A stretch of DNA of 44,893 nt, from the IMG/VR virus record IMGVR_UViG_3300008261_001827, positions 1 through 44,893 of that record. One strand, written 5' to 3'. Under the pieces are notes generated by a model that was given only the letters and a program-made list of their open reading frames with translations, was not told the origin of the DNA and ran no database searches. Position 1 is the first letter of the stretch; each line of letters begins with the position of its first letter. Position numbers and translations under genes: made by a program. Shown here in pieces: positions 1 to 12,552 of this stretch. Origin of the DNA: a virus. Lineage: Duplodnaviria; Heunggongvirae; Uroviricota; Caudoviricetes.

Positions 1-19
1 ATAAAGAGTTTAGAAAAAG

Positions 20-27
20 AATAAATA
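20..27 (+). promoter_or_regulatory. Possible T4-type late promoter (variant AATAAATA)
   Basis: One mismatch to TATAAATA, in non-coding DNA upstream of the RCC1 operon. Confidence 0.4.
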
Positions 28-129
28 TACACGACAGCCGAGTATCCTACGTGGACGCGAAGATGGCTTGATGATTGAATCAGTGATCGCCGCTTTGTCT
101 CCAAGTATATATTCTAGAAGGAGATGAGC

Positions 130-375
130 ATGGCAATTAAGATTCAAGGTACGACGATCATTAATGACGTCACCGCATACATAGATATAAATGGCACCAC
201 GGCAATTAAAGTACCAGCCGGTACCCTTTTACAAAGACCGACGGGTGTAACTGGCCAATTAAGATATAACACAACGGACGCAACATTCGAAGGTTTTAAC
301 GGGACTGCGTGGGGCCCGCTAGGGGGTGGTGCTGACGAACTTGCAAGAACTCTGGCAACGTTGGCGCTACCATAA
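130..375 (+). CDS. Small fibre-associated hypothetical protein
   Basis: AGGAG at 119-123 favours ATG 130 over 124; carries a GQLRYN...FEGFNG..W motif typical of T4-like phage fibre proteins; TAATG coupling to the next gene. Confidence 0.7.
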   Translation: MAIKIQGTTIINDVTAYIDINGTTAIKVPAGTLLQRPTGVTGQLRYNTTDATFEGFNGTAWGPLGGGADELARTLATLALP

Positions 376-1724
376 TGACTGTAGGAATACAACCACTCGT
401 AGATGAAGTAAATACAAATGTAGCAGGGGCGTTAACAACCCTAGAGCAGTTGCAACTCGCGAGTGTAATGCAAGATTTTGATCAAGGATTTACAAAGTGC
501 GTAGCTAACTGCGCAGCGCTTCCAGCTGCGGCTGATAACAAAGGTCGTTGGATCTTTCTTCAAGACGTTTGCAGTTATCGTTGGAGCGACGGGACAGCTT
601 GGTCAAGAGATTTTGCTAGTATTGAACAAAATATTGCTTTTTCATTTGGATGCAATGCTGATAACCAGCTGGGTGACAGAACCACAACCAACAGATCTTC
701 TCCAGTGTCAGTCTTAGGTGATGTCTTATACTGGTGTCAGGTGAGCGCTGGTAATGGATTTAATATTGGAGTTCGCAGTGATATGACTGCTTGGGGTTGG
801 GGCTGTAACGCAGGGGGCGAACTAGGTGACTGTACTAGCGTTAATAGAATCATACCTAGGCCAGTCGTTGGTGGCTTTGGTGACTGGTGTCAGGTTAGTG
901 CCGGAGCAAATCATAGTATAGGTGTTCGTCAGAATGGAACTGCTTGGGCCTGGGGGTTGGGATCATGTGGTCAGCTGGGTGATGGAACTTCAGTAAGCAA
1001 GTCTTCTCCAGTATTAGTCGTCGGCGGTTTTACGGACTGGTGTCAAGTAAGCGCCGGTCAACACTTCATACTTGGTGTTCGTCAAAATGGAACGGCCTGG
1101 GGTTGGGGTTGTGGTAGTGGAGGTCGTCTCGGTAACGAAACAACAGTCAATAAATGTTCTCCAGTATCAGTTGTTGGCGGTTTTAGTGACTGGTGTCAGG
1201 TTAGCGCTGGGACCGCTCACAGTCTAGGTGTTCGACAGAACGGGACCGCTTGGGCCTGGGGATGTAATACTTGTGGCCCACTGGGCGACGGCACTACAGT
1301 TGATAAATCTTCTCCTGTGTCAGTCGTAGGTGGCTTTACCGACTGGTGTCAGGTTAGTGCCGGAGCAAATCATAGTCTAGGTGTTCGACAGAATGGAACT
1401 GCTTGGGGTTGGGGTGCTGGCGCTGACGGACGCATTGGTAACGGAACTATAGTTAGTGTATCTTCTCCAGTGTCAGTCGTCGGCGGGTTCACGGACTGGT
1501 GTCAAGTAAGTGCCGGGCTTGGGCACAGTCTAGGCGTTCGCCAAAATGGCACCGCTTGGGCTTGGGGACAGGGTTCAACTGGTCGTCTTGGTGATGGCAC
1601 GGTCGTAAACAAATCTTCTCCAGTGTCAATCGCTGGCGGACTAACCGGTTGGAGATGCGTAAGTATATATACAAATGGTAATCATAGCTTAGCTGTTAGA
1701 TCTGATAGTACGAAGGGTTTTTAA
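375..1724 (+). CDS. RCC1-repeat 7-bladed beta-propeller protein 1
   Basis: Seven 51-aa repeats (AWxWG-x4-GxLGD...KSSPVxVVGGFTDWCQVSAGxxHSLGVRxNGT) after an ~87-aa N-terminal domain. Confidence 0.92.
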   Translation: MTVGIQPLVDEVNTNVAGALTTLEQLQLASVMQDFDQGFTKCVANCAALPAAADNKGRWIFLQDVCSYRWSDGTAWSRDFASIEQNIAFSFGCNADNQLGDRTTTNRSSPVSVLGDVLYWCQVSAGNGFNIGVRSDMTAWGWGCNAGGELGDCTSVNRIIPRPVVGGFGDWCQVSAGANHSIGVRQNGTAWAWGLGSCGQLGDGTSVSKSSPVLVVGGFTDWCQVSAGQHFILGVRQNGTAWGWGCGSGGRLGNETTVNKCSPVSVVGGFSDWCQVSAGTAHSLGVRQNGTAWAWGCNTCGPLGDGTTVDKSSPVSVVGGFTDWCQVSAGANHSLGVRQNGTAWGWGAGADGRIGNGTIVSVSSPVSVVGGFTDWCQVSAGLGHSLGVRQNGTAWAWGQGSTGRLGDGTVVNKSSPVSIAGGLTGWRCVSIYTNGNHSLAVRSDSTKGF

Positions 1725-1725
1725 T

Positions 1726-3039
1726 ATGAACGTAACGAATCTAATACTCAATCTTAAATCAAAAATCGGCGATGCTACGATTGATCAGCAGATGCTTTCA
1801 AAAGCAATAAAATTGTTAGAACTTGGTACTATTGAATCAGTTTCATCATTTTCAAGTCTTCCGAACGCTGCTACAACAGGCAGAGATAAATTATACTTGG
1901 TTGAGTTTGACGGCCTATACAAAACTAACGGAACTTATTGGGCGCCTTTTGCTCAGGATTTTTCACCAGCTTTTTCCTGGGGATGTAATACTTGTGGCCC
2001 ACTGGGCGACGGCACTACAGTTGATAAGTCTTCTCCAGTGTCAGTCGTTGGTGGCTTTACCGACTGGTGTCAGGTAGATGCAGGTCACAACCATAGTCTA
2101 GGAGTTCGTACTAACGGAACTGCTTGGGCTTGGGGTCAAGGCACAAATGGTCGCCTTGGTGACAACACAAACGTTTCAAAATCTTCGCCTGTGTTAGTCT
2201 CTGGAGGATTTAGTGACTGGTGTCAGGTAAGCGTTGGATATATGCATAGTATAGGAGTTCGACAGAACGGGACCGCTTGGGCTTGGGGTGCTGGTATTGG
2301 CGGACAACTTGGTGATAATACAATAGTTGATAAGTCTTCTCCTGTGTCAGTCGTTGGTGGATTTACAGACTGGTGTCAAGTAAGTGCTGGGGAATGCTAC
2401 AATTTAGGAGTGCGCCAAGGTGGGGGCGCTTGGGCGTGGGGATCGGCAATCAACGGGAAACTAGGCGACGGAACAACAGTCGGTAAATCTTCGCCAGTAT
2501 TAGTAGCAGGCGGTTTTAGTGACTGGTGTCAGGTAGATGCAGGTAACTACCATAGTCTAGGAGTTCGACAGAACGGGACTGCTTGGGCTTGGGGCACTGG
2601 TTGCCGTGGGCAGGTTGGTGACGGAACAACAGTTAATAAATCTTCTCCTGTGTTAGTCGTAGGTGGCTTTACCGACTGGTGTCAGGTTAGTGCCGGATTT
2701 GTTCACAGCATAGGAGTTCGTCAGAATGGAACCCTGTGGGCATGGGGGCAAGGGGTAGGAGGTCTACTAGGTGATAACACTGTAGTTGCTAAATCTTCTC
2801 CAGTGTCAGTCGTTGGAGGTTTTACAGATTGGTGCCAAGTGAGTGCTGGAGGTGTTCACAGTTTGGGTATTCGCACAAATGGAACAGCTTGGGCTTGGGG
2901 TTGCGGCACAAATGGTCGCCTTGGTGATAATACAACAGTTAATAAATCTTCGCCTGTGTTAGTCTCTGGAGGATTTAGTGACTGGTGTCAGGTAAGTACT
3001 TTTGTCACTAGCGCAGCAATTAGGAGAACGAATGTATGA
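1726..3039 (+). CDS. RCC1-repeat beta-propeller protein 2
   Basis: Seven RCC1 repeats plus N-terminal helical domain. Confidence 0.92.
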   Translation: MNVTNLILNLKSKIGDATIDQQMLSKAIKLLELGTIESVSSFSSLPNAATTGRDKLYLVEFDGLYKTNGTYWAPFAQDFSPAFSWGCNTCGPLGDGTTVDKSSPVSVVGGFTDWCQVDAGHNHSLGVRTNGTAWAWGQGTNGRLGDNTNVSKSSPVLVSGGFSDWCQVSVGYMHSIGVRQNGTAWAWGAGIGGQLGDNTIVDKSSPVSVVGGFTDWCQVSAGECYNLGVRQGGGAWAWGSAINGKLGDGTTVGKSSPVLVAGGFSDWCQVDAGNYHSLGVRQNGTAWAWGTGCRGQVGDGTTVNKSSPVLVVGGFTDWCQVSAGFVHSIGVRQNGTLWAWGQGVGGLLGDNTVVAKSSPVSVVGGFTDWCQVSAGGVHSLGIRTNGTAWAWGCGTNGRLGDNTTVNKSSPVLVSGGFSDWCQVSTFVTSAAIRRTNV

Positions 3040-4406
3040 ACTTAGCACAATTTCAAATATTACTCCAAAAAGCAATCGACAGTTCAAGTAATACACTCGA
3101 TTACCTATTTCTATCAAGAGCAGTCCAAACTCTAGCCGTAGGACAGGTAAGAGAAGTTGCCACATACGCAAACTTACCTTCAGCTGCATCTAACGAAGGA
3201 CTGTTAGTATTCGTAACGGCGGATGAAAGGATTTATTGGAGTACTGGAACTGGCTGGTATAATCTTATCGATGAAAATAAAGGAATTGCGTATGCATGGG
3301 GTGGTGGGGGCAGAGGTAAACTAGGTGATAATACAGAAGTCAATAAATCTTCTCCAGTTTCAGTCATTGGTAGCTTTACAGACTGGTGTCAAGTAAGCGC
3401 CGGTGGTAGTCACAGTATTGGCCTTCGCTCTAACGGAACTGTCTGGGCATGGGGGTGTAGTGCATATGGCCGCCTCGGTGATAACTGCACTGTTCTACCA
3501 AGTTCTTCTGGTAGATCTTCACCAGTATCAGTAGTCGGCGGTTTTACAGACTGGTGTTATGTAAGTGCCGGGGATGACCACAACTTAGGTGTTCGTACTA
3601 ATGGAACTGCATGGGGTTGGGGAAACCCGTGCCATGGGGTACTAGGTAACAACTTCAACGGTTCCATTAATGTTATTGATGGAACCGGTGGTTTCTCTTC
3701 TCCAGTGTCAGTCGTTGGTGGCTTTACAGACTGGTGCCAAGTGAGCGCTGGGGGCAGTCACAGTCTAGGTGTTCGACGGAACGGGACCGCTTGGGCTTGG
3801 GGATGCGGTAGTTACGGTCTTCTTGGCGATGGCACTACAGTATGCAAGTCTTCTCCAGTATTAGTCGTCGGCGGTTTTACGGACTGGTGTCAGGTAGATG
3901 CAGGTGGCGGTCGCAACTTAGGTGTTCGCCAAAATGGAACTGCATGGGGTTGGGGTTGCGGCTCCAATGGTCGCCTTGGTGACGGAACAACAGTTAATAA
4001 ATCTTCTCCAGTGTCAGTAGTTGGAGGCTTTACCGACTGGTGTCAGGTTAGCGCTGGGTCCGCTCACAGTCTAGGTGTTCGTACTAACGGAACCGCTTGG
4101 GCGTGGGGAGCGGCTTTCTGCGGGAAACTAGGCGACGGAACAACAGTCAATAAATCTTCGCCAGTATCAGTCGTCGGTGGGTTCTTTGACTGGTGTCAGG
4201 TTAGTGCCGGAGCAAATCATAGTCTAGGTGTTCGCCAGAATGGAACCGCTTGGGCATGGGGAATTGCTGCTTGCGGCGTTTTAGGATCTGGTGCGCCTGC
4301 CAATGCATCTTCTCCAGTATCAGTCGTCGGTGGCTTTACAGACTGGTGTCAAGTAAGCGCTAGCAATTATCACAGCTTAGCTCTAAGAAGAACAAATTTC
4401 GTATAA
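3036..4406 (+). CDS. RCC1-repeat beta-propeller protein 3
   Basis: Seven RCC1 repeats, two with loop insertions; ATGA overlap with upstream gene. Confidence 0.92.
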   Translation: MNLAQFQILLQKAIDSSSNTLDYLFLSRAVQTLAVGQVREVATYANLPSAASNEGLLVFVTADERIYWSTGTGWYNLIDENKGIAYAWGGGGRGKLGDNTEVNKSSPVSVIGSFTDWCQVSAGGSHSIGLRSNGTVWAWGCSAYGRLGDNCTVLPSSSGRSSPVSVVGGFTDWCYVSAGDDHNLGVRTNGTAWGWGNPCHGVLGNNFNGSINVIDGTGGFSSPVSVVGGFTDWCQVSAGGSHSLGVRRNGTAWAWGCGSYGLLGDGTTVCKSSPVLVVGGFTDWCQVDAGGGRNLGVRQNGTAWGWGCGSNGRLGDGTTVNKSSPVSVVGGFTDWCQVSAGSAHSLGVRTNGTAWAWGAAFCGKLGDGTTVNKSSPVSVVGGFFDWCQVSAGANHSLGVRQNGTAWAWGIAACGVLGSGAPANASSPVSVVGGFTDWCQVSASNYHSLALRRTNFV

Positions 4407-4430
4407 TGATAATTACAAAGGAGAAAATAA

Positions 4431-5072
4431 ATGTATGCAGTAGTTTATAACGATAGAGTAATTGTCGGACCAATGGATTGGAACCGCGCAATTTTTCAAG
4501 GATCTCTAGAAAAAGAAAATGTCACGGCTGGCATTCCTAGAGTAGCGCCAGAAACTCTTCCATATATTATTAATGAAGACACAAGAATTGCACTAGTAGA
4601 AGAACAGAGACCAGAAATCAATCCTATGGTAGAATACTACTATGGACCACAGTGGGATCTTTCCGGTGACAAGGCGGTCGCAGTATATGAAGTAGTAGAT
4701 ACACTAGTTGATTTCGCTCGCGATAATTTTAAAACTAAAGCGGCCGAAGCAAGATGGAAAAAAGAAACAGCTGGAACGAAAATAAATATACAAGGTACCG
4801 AAGTTAGTCTAGATACTAGCCGTGACGGAAGAAATATTTTCATACAGAAGTATTCTATTATGACGGAAGAAGAAGTTGCAAATTGGAAATTCCCAGAAGG
4901 TTGGCTCACTCTTACAAAGAGCGATCTTGGTTCTATTGTTTCTGCCGGTTCGAGTTATATTCAAAGTTGCTTTGACTGGGAGAAAACAATTAATGATGAA
5001 ATTAATGCAGCGACATCAAAAGAAGAATTGGTATCTATTGGTGAACAAATAGCGGAACAGATGGTAGAATAA
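4431..5072 (+). CDS. DUF4376-like protein (putative fibre assembly/accessory factor)
   Basis: AAGGAG RBS; C-terminal AEARWKKETAG...DTSRDGR...NWKF..GWLTLT...IQSCFDWE...INAA pattern matches DUF4376 phage proteins. Confidence 0.7.
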   Translation: MYAVVYNDRVIVGPMDWNRAIFQGSLEKENVTAGIPRVAPETLPYIINEDTRIALVEEQRPEINPMVEYYYGPQWDLSGDKAVAVYEVVDTLVDFARDNFKTKAAEARWKKETAGTKINIQGTEVSLDTSRDGRNIFIQKYSIMTEEEVANWKFPEGWLTLTKSDLGSIVSAGSSYIQSCFDWEKTINDEINAATSKEELVSIGEQIAEQMVE

Positions 5073-5073
5073 T

Positions 5074-6438
5074 ATGCCCCCAATCGATAAACCAGGTTTG
5101 GTATCAAAACTAACGACCGTAGTTAATACTGCGTATGAAACCGGGTCATATCTTGTTGAAGACGTATTAGCAACATCTTTATCTATGACTGCACTGAGTG
5201 AGATTAATATTGTCACTGTATCTGACGTACTTTCATTGCCGAATCTTAAATATTACGATTCGCCAAACGCAATGATCTATTACGTTAACGATATAGACGT
5301 ATTTGCGGTAAGTTCTAATTTTAAGTGGCTAACACTTGACGGCAGGCTTCTAAGGCAGGATACCACATACGGAAAAATTTGGTCTTGGGGAAATAACAAT
5401 CTTGGCCAACTAGGTGATAGTACAGCAGTTTCTAAATCGTCTCCGGTATCAACTGCACCATCTGGTTGGTGTCAGTTAAGCGCTGGCGAATGTCATAGTT
5501 TGGCCGTCTGTACAAATGGTACAGCATGGGCTTGGGGTTCAAACTTTTTAGGTAAACTTGGTGACAATACTGCTGTCACCAAGTCTTCTCCAGTGTCAGT
5601 AGTTGGCGGCTTCACAGACTGGTGCCAAGTTAGTGCTGGGAACTATCATAGTCTAGGTGTTCGCACTAATGGAACGGCTTGGGCTTGGGGGGCAAACACT
5701 TTTGGGCAGCTAGGTGACTGCACTACAGTCGCAAAGTCTTCACCAGTATCAGTAATTAGCGGTATTACAGGGTGGTGTCGTGTAAGCGCAGGCACACTGT
5801 TTAGTATCGGAATTAGAGCAAACGGTGAAGCGTTTGGTTGGGGCAATGCCGGGTCTGGCCGTCTTGGGGATGGTACCACAGTTTCTAAATCTTCGCCTGC
5901 TCTAATTTCTGGAGGATTTAATAACTGGTGTCAGGTTAGTGCTGGCGGAGGTCATGCACTAGGAGTGCGTACCAATTCATCCGTTTGGGCTTGGGGAGGA
6001 AACTCTTTCGGTCAACTCGGTGATAACACGGTAGTTTCTAAATCTTCTCCAGTACAAGTAGTCGGTGGTTTTAATAACTGGCGCGAGGTAAGCGCTGGTG
6101 GGTGTCACAGCCTTGGCCGCAGATCTGATGGAACTTTATATGCCTGGGGGAATGGTTGCTGCGGCAACCTCGGAGACAACTGCACAGTTTCCAGATCATC
6201 TCCAGTGTCAGTCTCTGGAGGATTTACAGACTGGTGCCAAGTAAGCGCAGGATGCTGCCATAATATAGGTGTTAGAACTAATGGCACAGTCTGGGCTTGG
6301 GGTGTCGGGACATGTGGTCGTCTAGGAGACAATGCTGTCGCTAATAGATCTTCGCCAGTATCAGTCGTTGGTGGCTTTACAAGCTGGTGCGCGGTTAGTG
6401 CAGGTAACGACCATAGTCTAGGGATAATAAGCTTATGA
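5074..6438 (+). CDS. RCC1-repeat beta-propeller protein 4
   Basis: Seven RCC1 repeats plus N-terminal domain. Confidence 0.92.
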   Translation: MPPIDKPGLVSKLTTVVNTAYETGSYLVEDVLATSLSMTALSEINIVTVSDVLSLPNLKYYDSPNAMIYYVNDIDVFAVSSNFKWLTLDGRLLRQDTTYGKIWSWGNNNLGQLGDSTAVSKSSPVSTAPSGWCQLSAGECHSLAVCTNGTAWAWGSNFLGKLGDNTAVTKSSPVSVVGGFTDWCQVSAGNYHSLGVRTNGTAWAWGANTFGQLGDCTTVAKSSPVSVISGITGWCRVSAGTLFSIGIRANGEAFGWGNAGSGRLGDGTTVSKSSPALISGGFNNWCQVSAGGGHALGVRTNSSVWAWGGNSFGQLGDNTVVSKSSPVQVVGGFNNWREVSAGGCHSLGRRSDGTLYAWGNGCCGNLGDNCTVSRSSPVSVSGGFTDWCQVSAGCCHNIGVRTNGTVWAWGVGTCGRLGDNAVANRSSPVSVVGGFTSWCAVSAGNDHSLGIISL

Positions 6439-7793
6439 TAAATTCACAAAATCTCGTAAATAAAATTTGTGCTTGCATAAGCGGGGGCGGGCTTACAGCG
6501 TTACAAACTTGCCAAACAAACGGTGCCCTAACTATTCTAAGTAATCCTGTATCTAGCGTAGCAAGTTTTGCTAACTTGCCAAACGCAGTAACATACGCAG
6601 GAAGACTGATATATGTTAATGATGAAAACCGCTATTATCACGCGGTAGACGGATATTGGTTTAATAATCTCACTAGTGAAGTTTTTAACTATCGCCCAGA
6701 CATTTATGCTTGGGGATATAATGCCACAGGTGGGCTTGGCGACGGAACCGTAGTCAACAGATCTTCTCCAGTATCAGTCGTTGGCGGCTTTACAGATTGG
6801 TGTAATGTAAGTGCCGGATACCTCCACGGTTTAGGTGTTCGTACTAATGGAACCGCTTGGGCATGGGGGAATGGGTCATGCGGGCGTCTCGGTGATAACA
6901 CATCGGTGAATAAATCTTCTCCAGTATCAGTTGTTGGCGGCTTTACAGACTGGTGTCAAGTGAGCGCTGGGAACGCTCATAGTCTAGGTGTTCGTACTAA
7001 TGGAACTGCTTGGGCATGGGGTCCTGGGACATACGGTCGCCTCGGTGACAACAGCACAGTTTCCAGATCATCTCCAGTATCAGTTGTTGGCGGCTTTACA
7101 GACTGGAGTCAAGTAAGCGCTGGGGGCAGTCACAGTCTAGGTATTCGACGAAATGGAACGACTTGGGCATGGGGGAATGGGTCATGCGGGCGTCTCGGTG
7201 ACGGAACAACAGTTGCTAAATCTTCTCCTGTGTCAGTCGTTGGTGGATTTACAGACTGGTGCCAAGTAAGCGCTGGGCGCGGCATATTGGGCACTCACAG
7301 TCTAGGTGTTCGTACTAATGGAACTGCATGGGCTTGGGGGGATGGAACATGCGGTCGCCTTGGTAATAATACAATAGTCAACAGATCTTCCCCAGTATCA
7401 GTCGTTGGCGGCTTTACCGACTGGTGTCAGGTTAGTGCCGGAGCAAATCATAGTCTAGGTGTTCGACAGAACGGGACCGCTTGGGCTTGGGGAACTGCAT
7501 TCTGCGGCGTTCTTGGCGACAACACGATAGTTTCAAAATCTTCTCCAGTGTCAGTCGTCGGCGGGTTCACGGACTGGTGTCAAGTAAGCGCAGGCGAAAC
7601 TCATAATCTAGGATTAAGAACTAATGGAACACTGTGGGCGTGGGGTTCTAACACCCAAGGTCGTCTAGGGGATAATACTATTACAGCTAAGTCTTCGCCA
7701 GTGTCAATCGTAGGTGGACTAACTGGCTGGTGTCAAATAAGCGCTAACCTTTGCTCTAGCATGGCTATTCGCCAATCACGGAAAGGATTTTAA
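6435..7793 (+). CDS. RCC1-repeat beta-propeller protein 5
   Basis: Seven RCC1 repeats; ATGA overlap; C-terminus ends KGF like protein 1. Confidence 0.92.
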   Translation: MINSQNLVNKICACISGGGLTALQTCQTNGALTILSNPVSSVASFANLPNAVTYAGRLIYVNDENRYYHAVDGYWFNNLTSEVFNYRPDIYAWGYNATGGLGDGTVVNRSSPVSVVGGFTDWCNVSAGYLHGLGVRTNGTAWAWGNGSCGRLGDNTSVNKSSPVSVVGGFTDWCQVSAGNAHSLGVRTNGTAWAWGPGTYGRLGDNSTVSRSSPVSVVGGFTDWSQVSAGGSHSLGIRRNGTTWAWGNGSCGRLGDGTTVAKSSPVSVVGGFTDWCQVSAGRGILGTHSLGVRTNGTAWAWGDGTCGRLGNNTIVNRSSPVSVVGGFTDWCQVSAGANHSLGVRQNGTAWAWGTAFCGVLGDNTIVSKSSPVSVVGGFTDWCQVSAGETHNLGLRTNGTLWAWGSNTQGRLGDNTITAKSSPVSIVGGLTGWCQISANLCSSMAIRQSRKGF

Positions 7794-9128
7794 ATGGCTA
7801 CGCAAGATGACATAAACAACTTTACTTCTAGTAATTCTGTCGGATGCTTTTTAAAGCTAGCAGCACAAACATACGTTGATACTACGAATAGAAGTATTTC
7901 TGTTGCGACCGTAGACGATCTTCCGGACTTAAGCGGTAATACTATTATACCAGGAACTATATTTTACGTTGAAAGTTTGGGTGTTCCAGTAATTGCGCAA
8001 GTCGGGTGCTGGAGCGGATTGGATAACCGTCAGTTAAGAAGCGATTTTAATACGAATTTAATTTACGCGTGGGGGTTTCCTACTTCAGGACGCCTAGGTG
8101 ATAATACTACTGTGTCTAAATCTTCTCCAGTGTTAGTCGCTGGAGGGTTTAATGACTGGCAAGCAGTAAGCGGCACTGGCTCGCATGCCTTAGGCATACG
8201 TTCTAATGGAATCGCTTGGGCTTGGGGTGCTGGTACTTCTGGAGAACTTGGTGATAATACAACAGTTGATAAATCTTCTCCAGTGTCAGTCGTTGGTGGC
8301 TTTACAGACTGGTGTCAAGTAAGCGGTGGTGGTGTTCACAGTTTGGGTATTCGTACTAATGGAACTGCATGGGGTTGGGGCGCAAACACTTTTGGCAATA
8401 TTGGTGATAACACCGGTGGTGGTAAATCTTCTCCTGTGTCAGTCGTAGGTGGCTTTACAGACTGGTGTCAAGTGAGCGCTGGGAACGCTCACAGTCTAGG
8501 TGTTCGTACTAATGGAACTGCATGGGGTTGGGGATGTAATACTGGCGGTGGACAACTTGGCGACAACACGACAGCGACTAAATCATCACCAGTATCGGTT
8601 GTTGGCGGCTTTACAGACTGGTGCCAAGTAAGTGCGTCGGTGCACAGTCTAGGTGTTCGCCAAAATGGCACCGCCTGGGCTTGGGGGGATGGAGCATGCG
8701 GGCGTCTTGGTGATTACACTACAGTTGCTAAATCTTCTCCAGTGTTAGTCGTCGGCGGGTTCACGGACTGGTGTCAAGTAAGCGCAGCAAGATGCCATAG
8801 TCTAGGTGTTCGACAGAACGGGACCGCTTGGGCTTGGGGTCTTGGAACTGACGGCCGTCTCGGTGACAACACTGTAGCTGCCAAATCTTCTCCAGTGTCA
8901 GTCGTCGGTGGCTTTACGAACTGGTGTCAGGTGGCTACAGGCTGCACCCACAGCATAGGTGTCCGACAGAACGGAACTGTCTGGTCTTGGGGTGACAACA
9001 CCTTTGGACAACTAGGTCACGGCACTTTGGTTGCTAGATCTTCTCCAGTGTCAGTTGCTGGTGGGTTAACCGGCTGGAGTCAAGTTAGCGCAGGCATAGT
9101 GTTCAGCACAGCCGTAAGAGCAGTATAG
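7794..9128 (+). CDS. RCC1-repeat beta-propeller protein 6
   Basis: Seven RCC1 repeats plus N-terminal domain. Confidence 0.92.
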   Translation: MATQDDINNFTSSNSVGCFLKLAAQTYVDTTNRSISVATVDDLPDLSGNTIIPGTIFYVESLGVPVIAQVGCWSGLDNRQLRSDFNTNLIYAWGFPTSGRLGDNTTVSKSSPVLVAGGFNDWQAVSGTGSHALGIRSNGIAWAWGAGTSGELGDNTTVDKSSPVSVVGGFTDWCQVSGGGVHSLGIRTNGTAWGWGANTFGNIGDNTGGGKSSPVSVVGGFTDWCQVSAGNAHSLGVRTNGTAWGWGCNTGGGQLGDNTTATKSSPVSVVGGFTDWCQVSASVHSLGVRQNGTAWAWGDGACGRLGDYTTVAKSSPVLVVGGFTDWCQVSAARCHSLGVRQNGTAWAWGLGTDGRLGDNTVAAKSSPVSVVGGFTNWCQVATGCTHSIGVRQNGTVWSWGDNTFGQLGHGTLVARSSPVSVAGGLTGWSQVSAGIVFSTAVRAV

Positions 9129-9144
9129 CATCATAGTTTTTTTG

Positions 9145-9152
9145 TATAAATA
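9145..9152 (+). promoter_or_regulatory. T4-type late promoter TATAAATA upstream of modification island 1
   Basis: Exact consensus in the intergenic gap 9129-9259. Confidence 0.75.
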
Positions 9153-9259
9153 GAGTAGAAGCTATTAAACTCATAGCGTCGCAAAAAGATCTTATATAAA
9201 ATTTTAGACTTTTTGAGTAATTTTAATATTACAAACTTTTAATATGAAAGGTGATTTAA

Positions 9260-9820
9260 ATGAAGATTAATCTTGGCGCTGGTGGAACGAAGCTCGATGG
9301 TTTTGTAACTCTAGATTACGACCCGCTTGAAAATCCAGACTATATCGTAGATCTGGAAAAAGACACACTGCCATTCGAAGATAGCACAGTTGAAGTTGTT
9401 ATCGCTCATCACATACTCGAACATCTTGGGCCTGGTTATTTCCATTGCCTTAAAGAAATCTATCGAGTCTGTAAGCATGGAGCGACGATAGACATTCGTG
9501 TTCCGCATCATCGGCACGACTACTTCTACGACGACCCAACACATCGTAGACCAATTACTGTTGGTGGTCTTCTTCTTTTTAGTAAGAAACATAATAAACT
9601 ATGCAGGGAACAAGGCGCTGCGTCAAGCAGACTCGGTGATTACTTTAAAGTTGACTTTGAGATCCTAGATTACAACTATATGCCATCTCAGCAATACCGA
9701 GATCAGTTTGTTGGTGAACCGAGAGATGTTGTTGAAAAGTATCTTCGCGAACACAATAACATTATTGAAGAACTCTGGGTGAATTTAGTGGTGATCAAAG
9801 ATGAACACGGCGGAAAATAA
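9260..9820 (+). CDS. Class I SAM-dependent methyltransferase (Methyltransf_11-like)
   Basis: INLGAGG motif I; LPFEDSTVEVVIAHHILEHL; EIYRVCKHG; DDPTHRR. Confidence 0.8.
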   Translation: MKINLGAGGTKLDGFVTLDYDPLENPDYIVDLEKDTLPFEDSTVEVVIAHHILEHLGPGYFHCLKEIYRVCKHGATIDIRVPHHRHDYFYDDPTHRRPITVGGLLLFSKKHNKLCREQGAASSRLGDYFKVDFEILDYNYMPSQQYRDQFVGEPRDVVEKYLREHNNIIEELWVNLVVIKDEHGGK

Positions 9821-11150
9821 ATTTAAGATAGAAGATCTAAAACCCGTTGTAATGGATCTTCTATCTCACGAAAAACGCGAAATCGTATTTGATATTCTTA
9901 ACATGTATTTTCAAAGAGCAGAGGGTATAGGGGACTTTGATGCTCTTGGATATCTGGCACTAAAAGCAGAACACCGCGATTTGTATCTGAAATGTGCAGA
10001 AGCTGCATATACGAAGGCCGAAAGTCCTCAACAACTATACATCGCCAGATCAAACCTCTATAAAGCATATAACGCAATGAATATGCCGGATGATGCTCTA
10101 TTCTATATTAATCTAAATCTGATGATCACGCCGGATGACTTTGAGACTCAGACTCAAAAAGCGTTTAATATCGCACTCAAGGGAGATAGAACGGCGTCAG
10201 AAAAGATACTGTTAGACTTACTTGAAAAACATCCAGAGAAGCGAGAGGACATGAGAAGTGCTCTGTCGGGTAAAACGCTTCGTGAAGGAAAACTTGCAGA
10301 GGGAGTCTTGTCGTTCCTTGGGACGTTTAAGCCAAAGAGTGGCAAGTTTGATGATGCTCTTAAGATGAAGCGGTGGACCGGAGCAATTCAACCAGGTAAG
10401 ACTGTCTATATAGAGGGAGAGGGAGGTATAGGTGACGAGATCATCAACATTCGCTTTTTCAAATATCTTAAAGACTTAGGAATGAGACCAATACTCTACT
10501 CGTCGTGGTCTAAGTATCGCGAAGACACCGTGAATATGTTTCGTAGAAATGGGTTTGAAGTAATAACTGAGTACTATTCAATTGATCGGACACAACTATG
10601 GGCACCGATGATGAGTCTTCCAGGGTATCTCAATCTCGACGAATCTAAATTGTGGTATGGTTCGTATCTTAAACCTTTGAATGATCCAAAGAATAAAATC
10701 AATAGCACTAAGTTTAAAATTGGTATCAAGTGTTCAGGAAATCCATACTTTTCGCAAGATGAGTATCGTAAGATACCAATCGAAAAGATGTTAGAATACT
10801 TACCAGAGAACGCAGAGATCTATTACATCGACAAGCAGCCAATAAATAATCCTAGAGTAATAGATCTATCGTCAAGAATAGAAACTTGGGAAGATACACT
10901 CGACTTTATTGAACAGATGGACTGTATCGTAAGTTCGTGCACGAGCTTGGTTCATGCCGCTGGCGCTATCGGAAAAACATCTTTTGTTGTAGTTCCAATT
11001 GCGGAGTATTACATTTGGTCTACTTCCAGTAAGACGTCAAAGTCTCCTTGGTATGGAGATAACTTTCAAGTACACAAACAGACTAAAGTTCGAAGCTGGG
11101 ACGAACCTCTGCAATGCGTAAATGAACAACTTTTGAAATTGATTGGATAA
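9801..11150 (+). CDS. TPR-containing GT-B glycosyltransferase (GT9-like C-terminus)
   Basis: Helical N-terminal repeats; EGEGGIGDEIINIRF and DCIVSSCTSLVHAAGAIGK match the EQGxGD / DLVISVDTxxxHLAGALG pattern. Confidence 0.75.
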   Translation: MNTAENKFKIEDLKPVVMDLLSHEKREIVFDILNMYFQRAEGIGDFDALGYLALKAEHRDLYLKCAEAAYTKAESPQQLYIARSNLYKAYNAMNMPDDALFYINLNLMITPDDFETQTQKAFNIALKGDRTASEKILLDLLEKHPEKREDMRSALSGKTLREGKLAEGVLSFLGTFKPKSGKFDDALKMKRWTGAIQPGKTVYIEGEGGIGDEIINIRFFKYLKDLGMRPILYSSWSKYREDTVNMFRRNGFEVITEYYSIDRTQLWAPMMSLPGYLNLDESKLWYGSYLKPLNDPKNKINSTKFKIGIKCSGNPYFSQDEYRKIPIEKMLEYLPENAEIYYIDKQPINNPRVIDLSSRIETWEDTLDFIEQMDCIVSSCTSLVHAAGAIGKTSFVVVPIAEYYIWSTSSKTSKSPWYGDNFQVHKQTKVRSWDEPLQCVNEQLLKLIG

Positions 11151-11152
11151 TT

Positions 11153-11929
11153 ATGAACAAAACATATCACTTCATAACAGGTCTGCCTCGGTCGGGTTCA
11201 ACTCTGTTATCATCTATACTTCGTCAGAACCCAAGGTTTCACGCTTCAATTACTGACCCACTGGCAAGTCTAGTTAAGGGAGTTATTGAACATAGTCAAG
11301 ACGCTCCTGGAATGAAATCTGAAGTTCCTGTTGAACGCAGAAAGAACCTTGTGCGGCATTTATTCGAAGGTTACTACGAAGACGTCGATAGGCCAGTAGT
11401 ATTCAATACAAATAGAGCATGGACATACCTAACAAATGTTACTCGTGATCTCTATCCAAAATCAAAATACATAGTTTGTGTAAGGGATTTGAATTGGGTA
11501 ATAGACAGCTTTGAGTCTGCCCATCGCAGAAATCCATTCTCCACAAACACGGTGACTGGTGGCGTAGGAAGTTCAGTGTATCAACGAGTAGATAGTCTTA
11601 TGAAGGAAGACGGGGTTGTAGGTTTTCCATACGTTGGAATTAAGCAGGCTCTTACTGGTCATGATCAGCCACTTCTGTTCTTATTAGAATACGACTTGTT
11701 GTGCAAGCAGCCAAAAGAAATGATGAAAGCTCTTTACAACTTCATAGAAGAACCTTATTTTGAACATGATTTTAATAATGTAGAAGCTTCTTGGGATGAG
11801 TACGACGCAGAGATTGGTATTAAACTTCACGACGTTCGTAAGAAAGTTGAATTCCGCGAAAGAAAGTTTATACTTCCACCAGATATCCTTAATAAGCACG
11901 CAAATATGGAATTTTGGCGACAACTATGA
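11153..11929 (+). CDS. PAPS-dependent sulfotransferase
   Basis: FITGLPRSGSTLL 5'-PSB loop; YIVCVRD..WVIDSF 3'-PB motif. Confidence 0.85.
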   Translation: MNKTYHFITGLPRSGSTLLSSILRQNPRFHASITDPLASLVKGVIEHSQDAPGMKSEVPVERRKNLVRHLFEGYYEDVDRPVVFNTNRAWTYLTNVTRDLYPKSKYIVCVRDLNWVIDSFESAHRRNPFSTNTVTGGVGSSVYQRVDSLMKEDGVVGFPYVGIKQALTGHDQPLLFLLEYDLLCKQPKEMMKALYNFIEEPYFEHDFNNVEASWDEYDAEIGIKLHDVRKKVEFRERKFILPPDILNKHANMEFWRQL

Positions 11930-12552
11930 CTATAATAAAAAGAGAAGATGGTTTATATTGGCCAGAAATCGATGTCGATTCTTGCTATACATGGACTAAT
12001 GTTGAATTATACACCGTAGATTCAATAGTAGGATCTCTTAAGAATAAGCGCACAATAATTCACGCGGGTGGAAACGTTGGAGCATACACTTTAAAATTTG
12101 CCGAAGCATTCGAGACAGTTTATGTGTTTGAACCGGATGTTACAAACTTCAAGTGTCTATGCATGAATACTGCAGATCATGAAAACGTATTTCAGTTTAG
12201 AGCAGCACTAGGTAGTAAGGCATCGCAAGTTTCTATCACTAATGACACTCCAGAAAATTGCGGTACGTTTCGTGTAAAGGAAGATGGAAACATTCCTGTA
12301 ATAACGATAGACAGTCTTGGATTGACAGACATAGATTGTATACATTTAGATGTTGAAGGTTACGAAATGAATGCATTACTCGGAGCAGAGAACACTATAA
12401 AACTGCATCGTCCATTAATTGTAGTAGAATGGCTGGATCACGGTAAAAATTATGGTTGGGATAAAAAAGATATTATGAACTTTCTGCTTGATATGGGATA
12501 TAATCAAATGAAACAAATCGGTTCTGATATGATGTTTAAAAATGAAAATTGA
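11926..12552 (+). CDS. FkbM-family methyltransferase
   Basis: IHAGGNVGAY, VFEPD..NF, IDCIHLDVEGYEMNALLGA; start moved to 11926 (ATGA overlap). Confidence 0.85.
   Translation: MTIIKREDGLYWPEIDVDSCYTWTNVELYTVDSIVGSLKNKRTIIHAGGNVGAYTLKFAEAFETVYVFEPDVTNFKCLCMNTADHENVFQFRAALGSKASQVSITNDTPENCGTFRVKEDGNIPVITIDSLGLTDIDCIHLDVEGYEMNALLGAENTIKLHRPLIVVEWLDHGKNYGWDKKDIMNFLLDMGYNQMKQIGSDMMFKNEN

Follow-up and report, generated by a model that had tools for sequence, protein, structure and literature searches.

The stretch of DNA analysed here (hereafter the window) comprises 44,893 nucleotides (nt) of the virus record IMGVR_UViG_3300008261_001827, a 111-kb IMG/VR contig with a completeness of about 53 %, of which it forms the first 44.9 kb. 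Near its start, at positions 375-9128, the window harbours six co-oriented RCC1 propeller genes that abut or overlap, namely g1 (375..1724), g2 (1726..3039), g3 (3036..4406), g4 (5074..6438), g5 (6435..7793) and g6 (7794..9128), all on the plus strand. The array is divided 3+3 by a single-copy DUF4376 gene (4431..5072, plus strand; PF14301, 5.7e-09), which also matched phrog_10508, a 'tail fiber protein' (3.8e-15), and served as an orthology anchor. Each RCC1 protein consists of an N-terminal domain of about 81-101 residues (about 87 in g1) followed by seven RCC1 repeats, or blades, of 51 residues, with insertions in blades 2 and 3 of g3; all six frames are open and each contains seven blades. 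The assignment is based on Pfam matches, supplemented by a blade map for g1, g2 and g3: all six proteins matched PF00415 with 140-170 bits (cut-off 21.7) and PF25390 with 194-258 bits (cut-off 150), the values for g1 being 3e-49 and 3.4e-61, respectively, and g1 additionally matched phrog_4219. All 42 RCC1 blade matches of the 111-kb contig lie within positions 639-9116, 41 of them above the Pfam cut-off.

The source is an uncultured lake cyanophage. Structural genes in the contig correspond to the set of T4-type cyanomyoviruses, i.e. baseplate-wedge, collagen-like tail-fibre and virion proteins, with S-CAM1 and S-CAM3, two phages of Synechococcus, giving the best protein matches (about 46 % identity). 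Lake and freshwater metagenomes from 14 studies contain near-identical DNA, and the phage is present in samples from 2017-2025. A megablast search of positions 1-12000 against the phage collection returned zero matches. Tail-fibre and baseplate genes follow downstream of the array, and the neighbourhood in phage S-SRM01 is similarly composed of a long-tail-fibre gene, RCC1 genes and a sulfotransferase gene; the RCC1 genes are not discussed in the S-SRM01 paper, and a literature search on RCC1 in cyanophages mostly matched culture-collection strain codes.

Judged by their sequences, the six proteins are RCC1-like seven-bladed beta-propellers. For g5, the AlphaFold2 model (predicted local distance difference test score, pLDDT, 89.5) shows seven four-stranded blades, and a Foldseek search of this model against the PDB retrieved UVR8, the RLD domains of HERC1/2, RPGR and RCC1 with template-modelling (TM) scores of 0.81-0.89 and E-values down to 2e-37; direct comparison with UVR8 and the HERC2 RLD yielded TM scores of 0.85-0.88. 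At the DNA level, the blade unit is 153 nt long and the mean identity among the 42 blades is about 65 %. Each blade combines a near-constant framework (SSPVSVVGGFTDWCQVSAG..HSLGVR.NGTAWAWG), in which codon preference is strong for some residues (TCT for Ser, CCA for Pro), with eight hypervariable positions, i.e. four in WG-xxxx-G and the remainder in GxLG, DxTxVxK and SAG-xx-H. According to the strand order of the model, the two variable loops would exit the sheet on one face and the two conserved loops on the opposite one. At two of the hypervariable loop positions (WG-C..C-G; blade columns 6 and 9, positions 636-9125), cysteine is more frequent than any other residue, being found in 24 % and 29 % of the blades in addition to the conserved cysteine of the DWC motif; these residues may serve to form disulfides on the variable face or to coordinate metal there.

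The N-terminal domains had been described from the letters alone as barely alignable among the six genes, and our alignment was indeed weak, with a mean column identity of 29 % and three invariant residues inside the domain proper (L48, P49 and W75). A PHROG search of the N-terminal parts returned zero matches, and the domain modelled alone (pLDDT 70) had its best structural matches, to a tailspike fragment and collagen trimerisation domains, at Z scores of at most 4.5, i.e. below the useful threshold.

An earlier inspection of the DNA that used no database searches (the sequence-only reading) had listed four blocks of shared DNA between blades, and all four were recovered at exactly the positions given, none being extendable by a single base on either side. 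They comprise a 52-nt tract shared by g1 blade 5 and g2 blade 1 (1255..1306 = 1976..2027; 52/52), a 62-nt tract shared by g1 blade 5 and g5 blade 5 (1332..1393 = 7410..7471; 62/62), a 71-nt tract in g5 blade 2 and g6 blade 3 (6939..7009 vs 8451..8521; 70/71) and a 40-nt tract in g5 blades 2 and 4 (6856..6895 = 7162..7201; 40/40), all on the plus strand. As claimed, the blocks span variable-loop codons as well as synonymous sites, the 52-nt and the 40-nt tracts covering variable loop 1. When three mismatches are allowed, the likeness around the 52-nt tract extends to about 100 nt; the 62-nt tract has a 47-nt core that is also present in g3 blade 6 (4188-4234), and 36 nt of it recur in g1 blade 2 (882-917). 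The list was correct but incomplete, as 39 exact repeats of at least 28 nt exist within positions 1-12000. Those absent from it include plus-strand tracts of 53 nt within g2 (blades 2 and 7; 2179..2231 = 2944..2996), of 51 nt between g1 blade 6 and g5 blade 6 (1460..1510 = 7538..7588) and of 49 nt between g1 blade 3 and g3 blade 4 (997..1045 = 3844..3892), and a further plus-strand tract of 44 nt crosses the boundary of blades 5 and 6 in both g5 and g6 (7449..7492 = 8796..8839).

All 39 repeats are in register with the 153-nt blade period, they join blades of unlike index at chance frequency, and none lies in an N-terminal part. Most cover the framework and loop 2, few include loop 1, and coverage is highest over the conserved GGFTDWCQ framework, which fits an exchange seeded there. 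Gene g4 takes part in merely one of the 39 repeats and has the most deviant blade frameworks (GGFNNW, SGITGW); it thus stands nearly outside the exchange, as expected if lower homology blocks conversion.

To judge these numbers against chance, codons were shuffled within alignment columns among the 42 blades, a null model that keeps the residue and codon usage of each column. Runs of at least 30 nt were observed 30 times against 1.08 expected, and runs of at least 40 nt 14 times against 0.06, while the longest run of 62 nt compares with 40 nt at the 95th percentile of the null maximum. As this null takes no account of how the blades are related, it was complemented by a 3SEQ-type triplet test, which is restricted to sites that distinguish two putative parents and is robust to rate variation among sites. 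Bonferroni correction for 68,628 tests left 68 significant triples, which name ten mosaic blades. The clearest mosaic is g1 blade 5, in which the left 100 nt match g2 blade 1 with three mismatches and the right 62 nt are those of g5 blade 5 exactly, even though its left part is just about 55 % identical to g5 blade 5. Blade 3 of g6 was likewise identified as a mosaic child (P = 1.4e-9).

Comparison with related phages separates the histories of the two halves of these genes. The arrangement of three RCC1 genes, DUF4376 and three RCC1 genes recurs in seven related contigs, which represent four distinct sequences (L001, L002, L006-L008 and L015); L014 shares it in part, with the first four genes of the array, and some other contigs have more genes, e.g. 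nine in L003. L006, L007 and L008 are identical in the array except for two differences in the g4 N-terminus. The number of blades is exactly seven in every gene of the seven six-gene arrays (the window, L001, L002, L006-L008 and L015) and in all nine genes of L003. In the window, L002, L001 and L007, the N-terminal domains pair one-to-one by gene position, and the genome label needs six of six changes, i.e. there is zero clustering by genome; that the paralogs are old, as proposed earlier, is therefore well supported by these four genomes. In contrast, the 168 blades of the same four genomes group by genome: the window requires 4 changes as opposed to 37.4 in shuffles, and 0 of 500 shuffles were as low. 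The blades cluster neither by gene (113 changes vs 109) nor by blade index. Codon positions 1 and 2 alone gave the same genome-wise clustering, so third-position composition is not its cause. The comparison of blade-level with gene-level phylogeny, which the sequence-only reading had suggested as a check, thus gave blades by genome and N-termini by gene, together with mosaicism, rather than blades grouped by gene or position. The nearest neighbour of 40 of the 42 window blades lies inside the window, and still does so for 38 once the closest relative, L015, is added.

L015 and the window are 74-78 % identical in the DNA of the N-termini, 83 % in the DUF4376 gene and 86 % downstream. Synonymous-codon identity, i.e. 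the fraction of conserved residues that the window and L015 encode by identical codons, amounts to 0.593 for the N-termini, 0.685 for DUF4376 and 0.661 for the methyltransferase gene. For same-position blades it is 0.408, close to the background of 0.397 for any other pair of window and L015 blades, while paralogous blades within either genome reach 0.474-0.476. As a calibration, the g1 blades of L014 and L015, with a synonymous identity of 0.59, keep their positional orthology in all seven blades; saturation is therefore not the reason why blade orthology has been lost.

The tracts themselves differ between lineages. Each of the five other distinct arrays tested (L001, L002, L003, L007 and L015) shows an excess of identical tracts of its own, located at different blade pairs. 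No runs of at least 30 nt are common to the window and L002, L001, L007 or L015 (maximum 23-28 nt over 1764 pairs each), and the window and L003 have two of 30-35 nt in common. The tract sets are thus lineage-specific and arose after the lineages split.

Three further observations on the related contigs concern the architecture of the arrays. The nine RCC1 genes of L003 (2815-15645) carry three types of N-terminal domain ordered A-B-C three times, which suggests a triplication of a three-gene unit; the within-genome blade identity of L003 (0.73) is the highest of the arrays. Solely on the 202-kb viral contig L005 (4292-8158 and 11298-13799) and on L009 (2-1210), open frames with 19, 14 and 8 RCC1 blades are found alongside normal seven-blade genes; they may represent fused double or triple propellers or stop-codon read-through. 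Lastly, L014:1-6549 and L015:1776-8330 share a stretch of about 3.3 kb (g3 propeller, DUF4376 and g4) at 100 % identity, yet their g1 blades are 71-88 % and their g2 blades 56-73 % identical, with both synonymous and non-synonymous changes, while the g1 N-terminus differs by only about 3 %. The divergent blades are not derived from resident paralogs (longest run 29 nt), and the pattern reflects either strain-level allelic exchange or chimeric contigs.

The array was matched by Logan contigs, which were produced by another assembler, in four runs of four studies (2017-2025). From a lake sample of 2019 and a freshwater sample of 2024, 8.9 kb were recovered with 0 (X1) and 1 (X4) differences and 30 of 30 bins covered, and an independent 2024 contig (1481-2058) spans the 52-nt block in g2 and continues for 31 nt on its far side. 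Misassembly, which the sequence-only reading had asked to be excluded, is therefore unlikely, given that the array was assembled alike from two independent samples, of 2019 and 2024. Two other samples contain variants. In X18, the 40-nt block of g5 blade 2 has TGG, the sequence of g3 blade 1, in place of GAA at 6869-6871, and an A>G change at 1307, as in g2, extends the g1/g2 tract. In X20, 12 changes fall within 36 nt (2143-2178, the g2 blade 2 loop), 10 of which match g3 blade 6. These variants are single contigs at a depth of 4-6 and are hints only, and stretches of the array left uncovered in X18 and X20 should not be read as absent. Of the claim that exchange is ongoing, what stands are the zero-divergence tracts and these few patchy, low-depth variants. 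Logan joints at 706>2359 (X20) and 3842>9030 (X1) were considered as deletion variants and rejected, since their sides measure merely 21-24 nt and lie in repeats. The joint in X1 skips 5187 nt between g3 blade 4 and g6 blade 7 and could represent a deletion by unequal crossover, though with a shorter side of 21 nt it is unreliable.

Taken together, the 42 blades of these six old tandem paralogs have very probably undergone concerted evolution by short-tract gene conversion, because blades are more alike within a genome than between genomes while the N-termini show orthology, mosaic breakpoints are present and the tracts are lineage-specific. The proposal that blade DNA is exchanged by recombination between the paralogs is thereby upheld by genome-wise clustering, significant mosaics and lineage-specific blocks. 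In the mechanism we propose, the 42 blade units (153 nt, about 65 % identical) would supply the homology, mainly in the SSPVSVVGGFTDWCQVSAG framework, for ectopic homologous recombination within the phage genome, and non-reciprocal tracts of 28-62 nt (exact), or of about 100 nt with few mismatches, would be copied from blade to blade. Such copying would keep the blade register and disregard gene and blade index; repeated over long periods, it would couple the evolution of all blades within a genome and erase blade orthology between related phages, whereas the N-terminal domains, without such homology, would diverge vertically. Occasionally, a tract would bring a variable loop along, making loops movable between genes. 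In T4-type phages, replication depends on recombination, which proceeds at very high rates and makes do with short homology; the likely engine would therefore be this recombination-dependent replication, involving strand invasion and template switching, an enzymology suggested by the phage type.

Several points weigh against this reading or limit its reach. The mean blade identity is 0.650 within a genome compared with 0.63 between genomes, i.e. barely higher, so that homogenisation is weak and patchy. The GC content at third codon positions varies from 0.26 to 0.36 between genomes and could add to the genome-wise clustering, though positions 1 and 2 agree with it. A RecA-family search found no recombinase in the 111-kb contig, which at about 53 % completeness is uninformative for the rest of the genome. 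The differences in the variant contigs of depth 4-6 are possibly errors or other strains, and zero conversion events have been observed directly. Finally, recombination between phages, as seen for L014 and L015, also reshapes the propellers and may explain part of the lost orthology.

The last point leads to the rival that deserves most attention, namely that exchange between co-infecting phages is the main driver, with blade orthology scrambled by imports and the identical blocks arising as by-products. That L014 and L015 are identical over 3.3 kb, yet have g1 and g2 blades that diverged by changes not taken from resident paralogs, speaks for such exchange, although both are metagenome contigs and possible strain chimeras. 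Imports would not, however, make paralogous blades more alike than orthologues (0.474 vs 0.408), nor would they yield nearest neighbours within the genome for 38-40 of 42 blades or put an exact tract of 47-62 nt in three or four blades of one genome. We therefore consider it unlikely as the main driver, and inter-phage exchange is best seen as a second process at the same locus. Birth and death of blades, in which the identical blocks would be remnants of recent duplications of whole blades or genes that subsequently diverged without conversion, would account for the 86 % blade-wide identity of both g5 blade 2 with blade 4 and g1 blade 5 with g2 blade 1. This explanation is very improbable in view of the constant number of seven blades per gene in seven six-gene arrays and L003, the one-to-one orthology of the N-termini and the existence of single blades that are chimeric from two different partners with sharp breakpoints; moreover, a blade replaced at constant count is conversion by definition.

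The remaining explanations are more remote still. Repeats collapsed or homogenised by assembly or polishing would be a concern for any metagenome contig, the more so as the Logan contigs break in repeats and many of them fit two places. Set against this are the contigs of another assembler with 0 and 1 differences over 8.9 kb, the bridged 52-nt block, six open frames of seven blades each, and five other distinct arrays with the same excess at different blade pairs; the blocks, at 71 nt or less, should also lie below typical read length. An artefact is thus slightly less probable even than birth and death. Selection at the nucleotide level, through codon preference or RNA structure, or else convergence, might keep stretches identical where the framework peptide is highly conserved and some codons are strongly preferred (TCT for Ser, CCA for Pro), but the null that preserves codon usage predicts about one run of at least 30 nt where 30 were observed, the same peptides in related phages give no such runs with the window save the two of 30-35 nt with L003, and the tracts differ between blade pairs, all of which leaves this possibility barely credible. 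We give just as little credence to programmed diversification, i.e. a diversity-generating retroelement or a dedicated cassette system that writes the blades. A constant framework with variable loops does resemble the targets of such systems, yet an RVT_1 search found no reverse transcriptase in the 111-kb contig (about 53 % complete), the tracts are exact copies with no adenine-specific mutation, and donors and acceptors are all full genes that look expressed, with zero silent cassettes.

What gene conversion among the blades does for the phage is less clear-cut. The sequence-only reading had expected it to generate combinatorial diversity, which our data do not demonstrate: the measurable effect is homogenisation, few tracts carry loop 1, the loop-1 peptides are still distinct in 40 of the 42 blades, and the ratio of non-synonymous to synonymous differences (pN/pS) is not above 1. 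At the eight hypervariable columns pN/pS is 0.83-0.95, compared with 0.20-0.28 in the framework, both site classes being near saturation; the former value shows a lack of constraint and is no proof of positive selection. It is nevertheless plausible that exchange generates useful diversity. Whether the propellers are virion-borne host-binding modules we regard as evenly balanced. This role would be inferred by analogy and from genomic context, i.e. from the tail-fibre and baseplate genes downstream, the tail-fibre-type DUF4376 gene within the array, the S-SRM01 neighbourhood, the RCC1 proteins in coliphage virions and the Pseudomonas phages in which RCC1 propellers are fused to tail-fibre N-termini. 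It is tempting, if rather doubtful, to speculate that the array constitutes a self-renewing binding repertoire, in which exchange would occur within few infection cycles, each lake population would hold many mosaic variants, and changing Synechococcus surfaces would select among them. If true, this would be the phage counterpart of cassette antigenic variation or of the fungal HNWD genes, and the T4-type recombination machinery would suffice for it, with no dedicated enzyme required.

On the flank of the array, an open reading frame of 83 residues (124-375, plus strand) precedes g1, its stop overlapping the g1 start, and contains the motif PAGT..QRP, GQLRYN and FEGFNG..W, which we take to be that of phage tail-fibre N-termini; in L015, a frame of 664 residues occupies its place and the match is limited to the last 40 nt. 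Directly after g6, before the methyltransferase gene, a sequence resembling a T4 late promoter (TATAAATA) is found at 9145-9152 (plus strand). Within 375-9128 such a sequence is absent, so that transcription of the six genes probably starts upstream of the window or from a promoter of another type.

Gene conversion between repeats is textbook biology. The mechanism proposed here belongs to a known kind; its setting is new, and it has left an unusually clear signature: within each of the six genes, the two halves have opposite histories, the N-termini following gene position and the blades following the genome, and several related lake phages display the same pattern independently. In the literature searched, no gene family in a phage structural region was described as evolving in concert at the level of repeats below the domain. 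Orthology-based comparison of such genes between phages misleads, and short-read assemblies of such arrays require phasing. If the propellers bind hosts, the locus would show a large phage keeping and reshuffling 42 interchangeable binding units, with relevance to the host-range evolution of freshwater cyanophages.

Segmental gene conversion with short non-reciprocal tracts that give rise to mosaic surface proteins is known from Neisseria pilE/pilS, Borrelia vlsE and Anaplasma msp2. These systems rely on one expression site, silent donor cassettes and dedicated cis elements, whereas the phage array consists of six intact-looking, co-oriented genes in one operon-like block, with no directionality seen.

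Among phages, tandem RCC1 propeller paralogs are found in large coliphages. The virion proteome of coliphage W70 includes the RCC1-like proteins W70_237-239 (PMC11370258), and GAP_001 of phage GAP32 is an RCC1-like virion protein, with arrays also present in 121Q and PBECO4 (PMC5259590). These, too, are tandem propeller paralogs in myoviruses, linked to the present array by phrog_4219, which g1 matches, and with members placed in virions by mass spectrometry; they belong to other phage families and hosts, and concerted evolution is not reported for them (PMC11370258, PMC5259590). In T4-type phages, the gp38 adhesins and distal tail-fibre genes carry conserved glycine-rich motifs that flank hypervariable segments (Trojet et al. 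2011, PMC3157838). The likeness to the array lies in the phage type, the interleaving of conserved motifs with hypervariable segments, the motifs as proposed recombination sites and the context of host recognition. However, gp38 exchange takes place between alleles of a single-copy gene in different phages and receptor binding is proven, whereas exchange in the array is concerted, among 42 repeats of six paralogs in one genome, and receptor binding is inferred.

The closest analogue is the HNWD family of WD-repeat genes of Podospora anserina (het-d, het-e and het-r), in which propeller repeats are swapped within and between paralogs and evolve in concert (Paoletti, Saupe & Clave 2007, PMC1805685; Chevanne et al. 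2010, PMC2873952). Their hypervariable residues lie on the binding face, with positive selection at four positions, and repeat-induced point mutation (RIP) adds mutations (PMC1805685; PMC2873952). The HNWD genes and the phage array thus have in common paralogous beta-propeller repeat genes with exchange within and between paralogs, concerted evolution, a constant framework with few hypervariable positions per repeat on one face, and N-terminal parts that evolve separately. They differ in that the HNWD genes are eukaryotic and have WD40 repeats of 42 amino acids that are about 85-100 % identical and vary in number between alleles, while the phage array has RCC1 repeats of 51 amino acids, about 65 % identical, with tracts shorter than a blade, a fixed number of seven blades and a pN/pS of 0.83-0.95.

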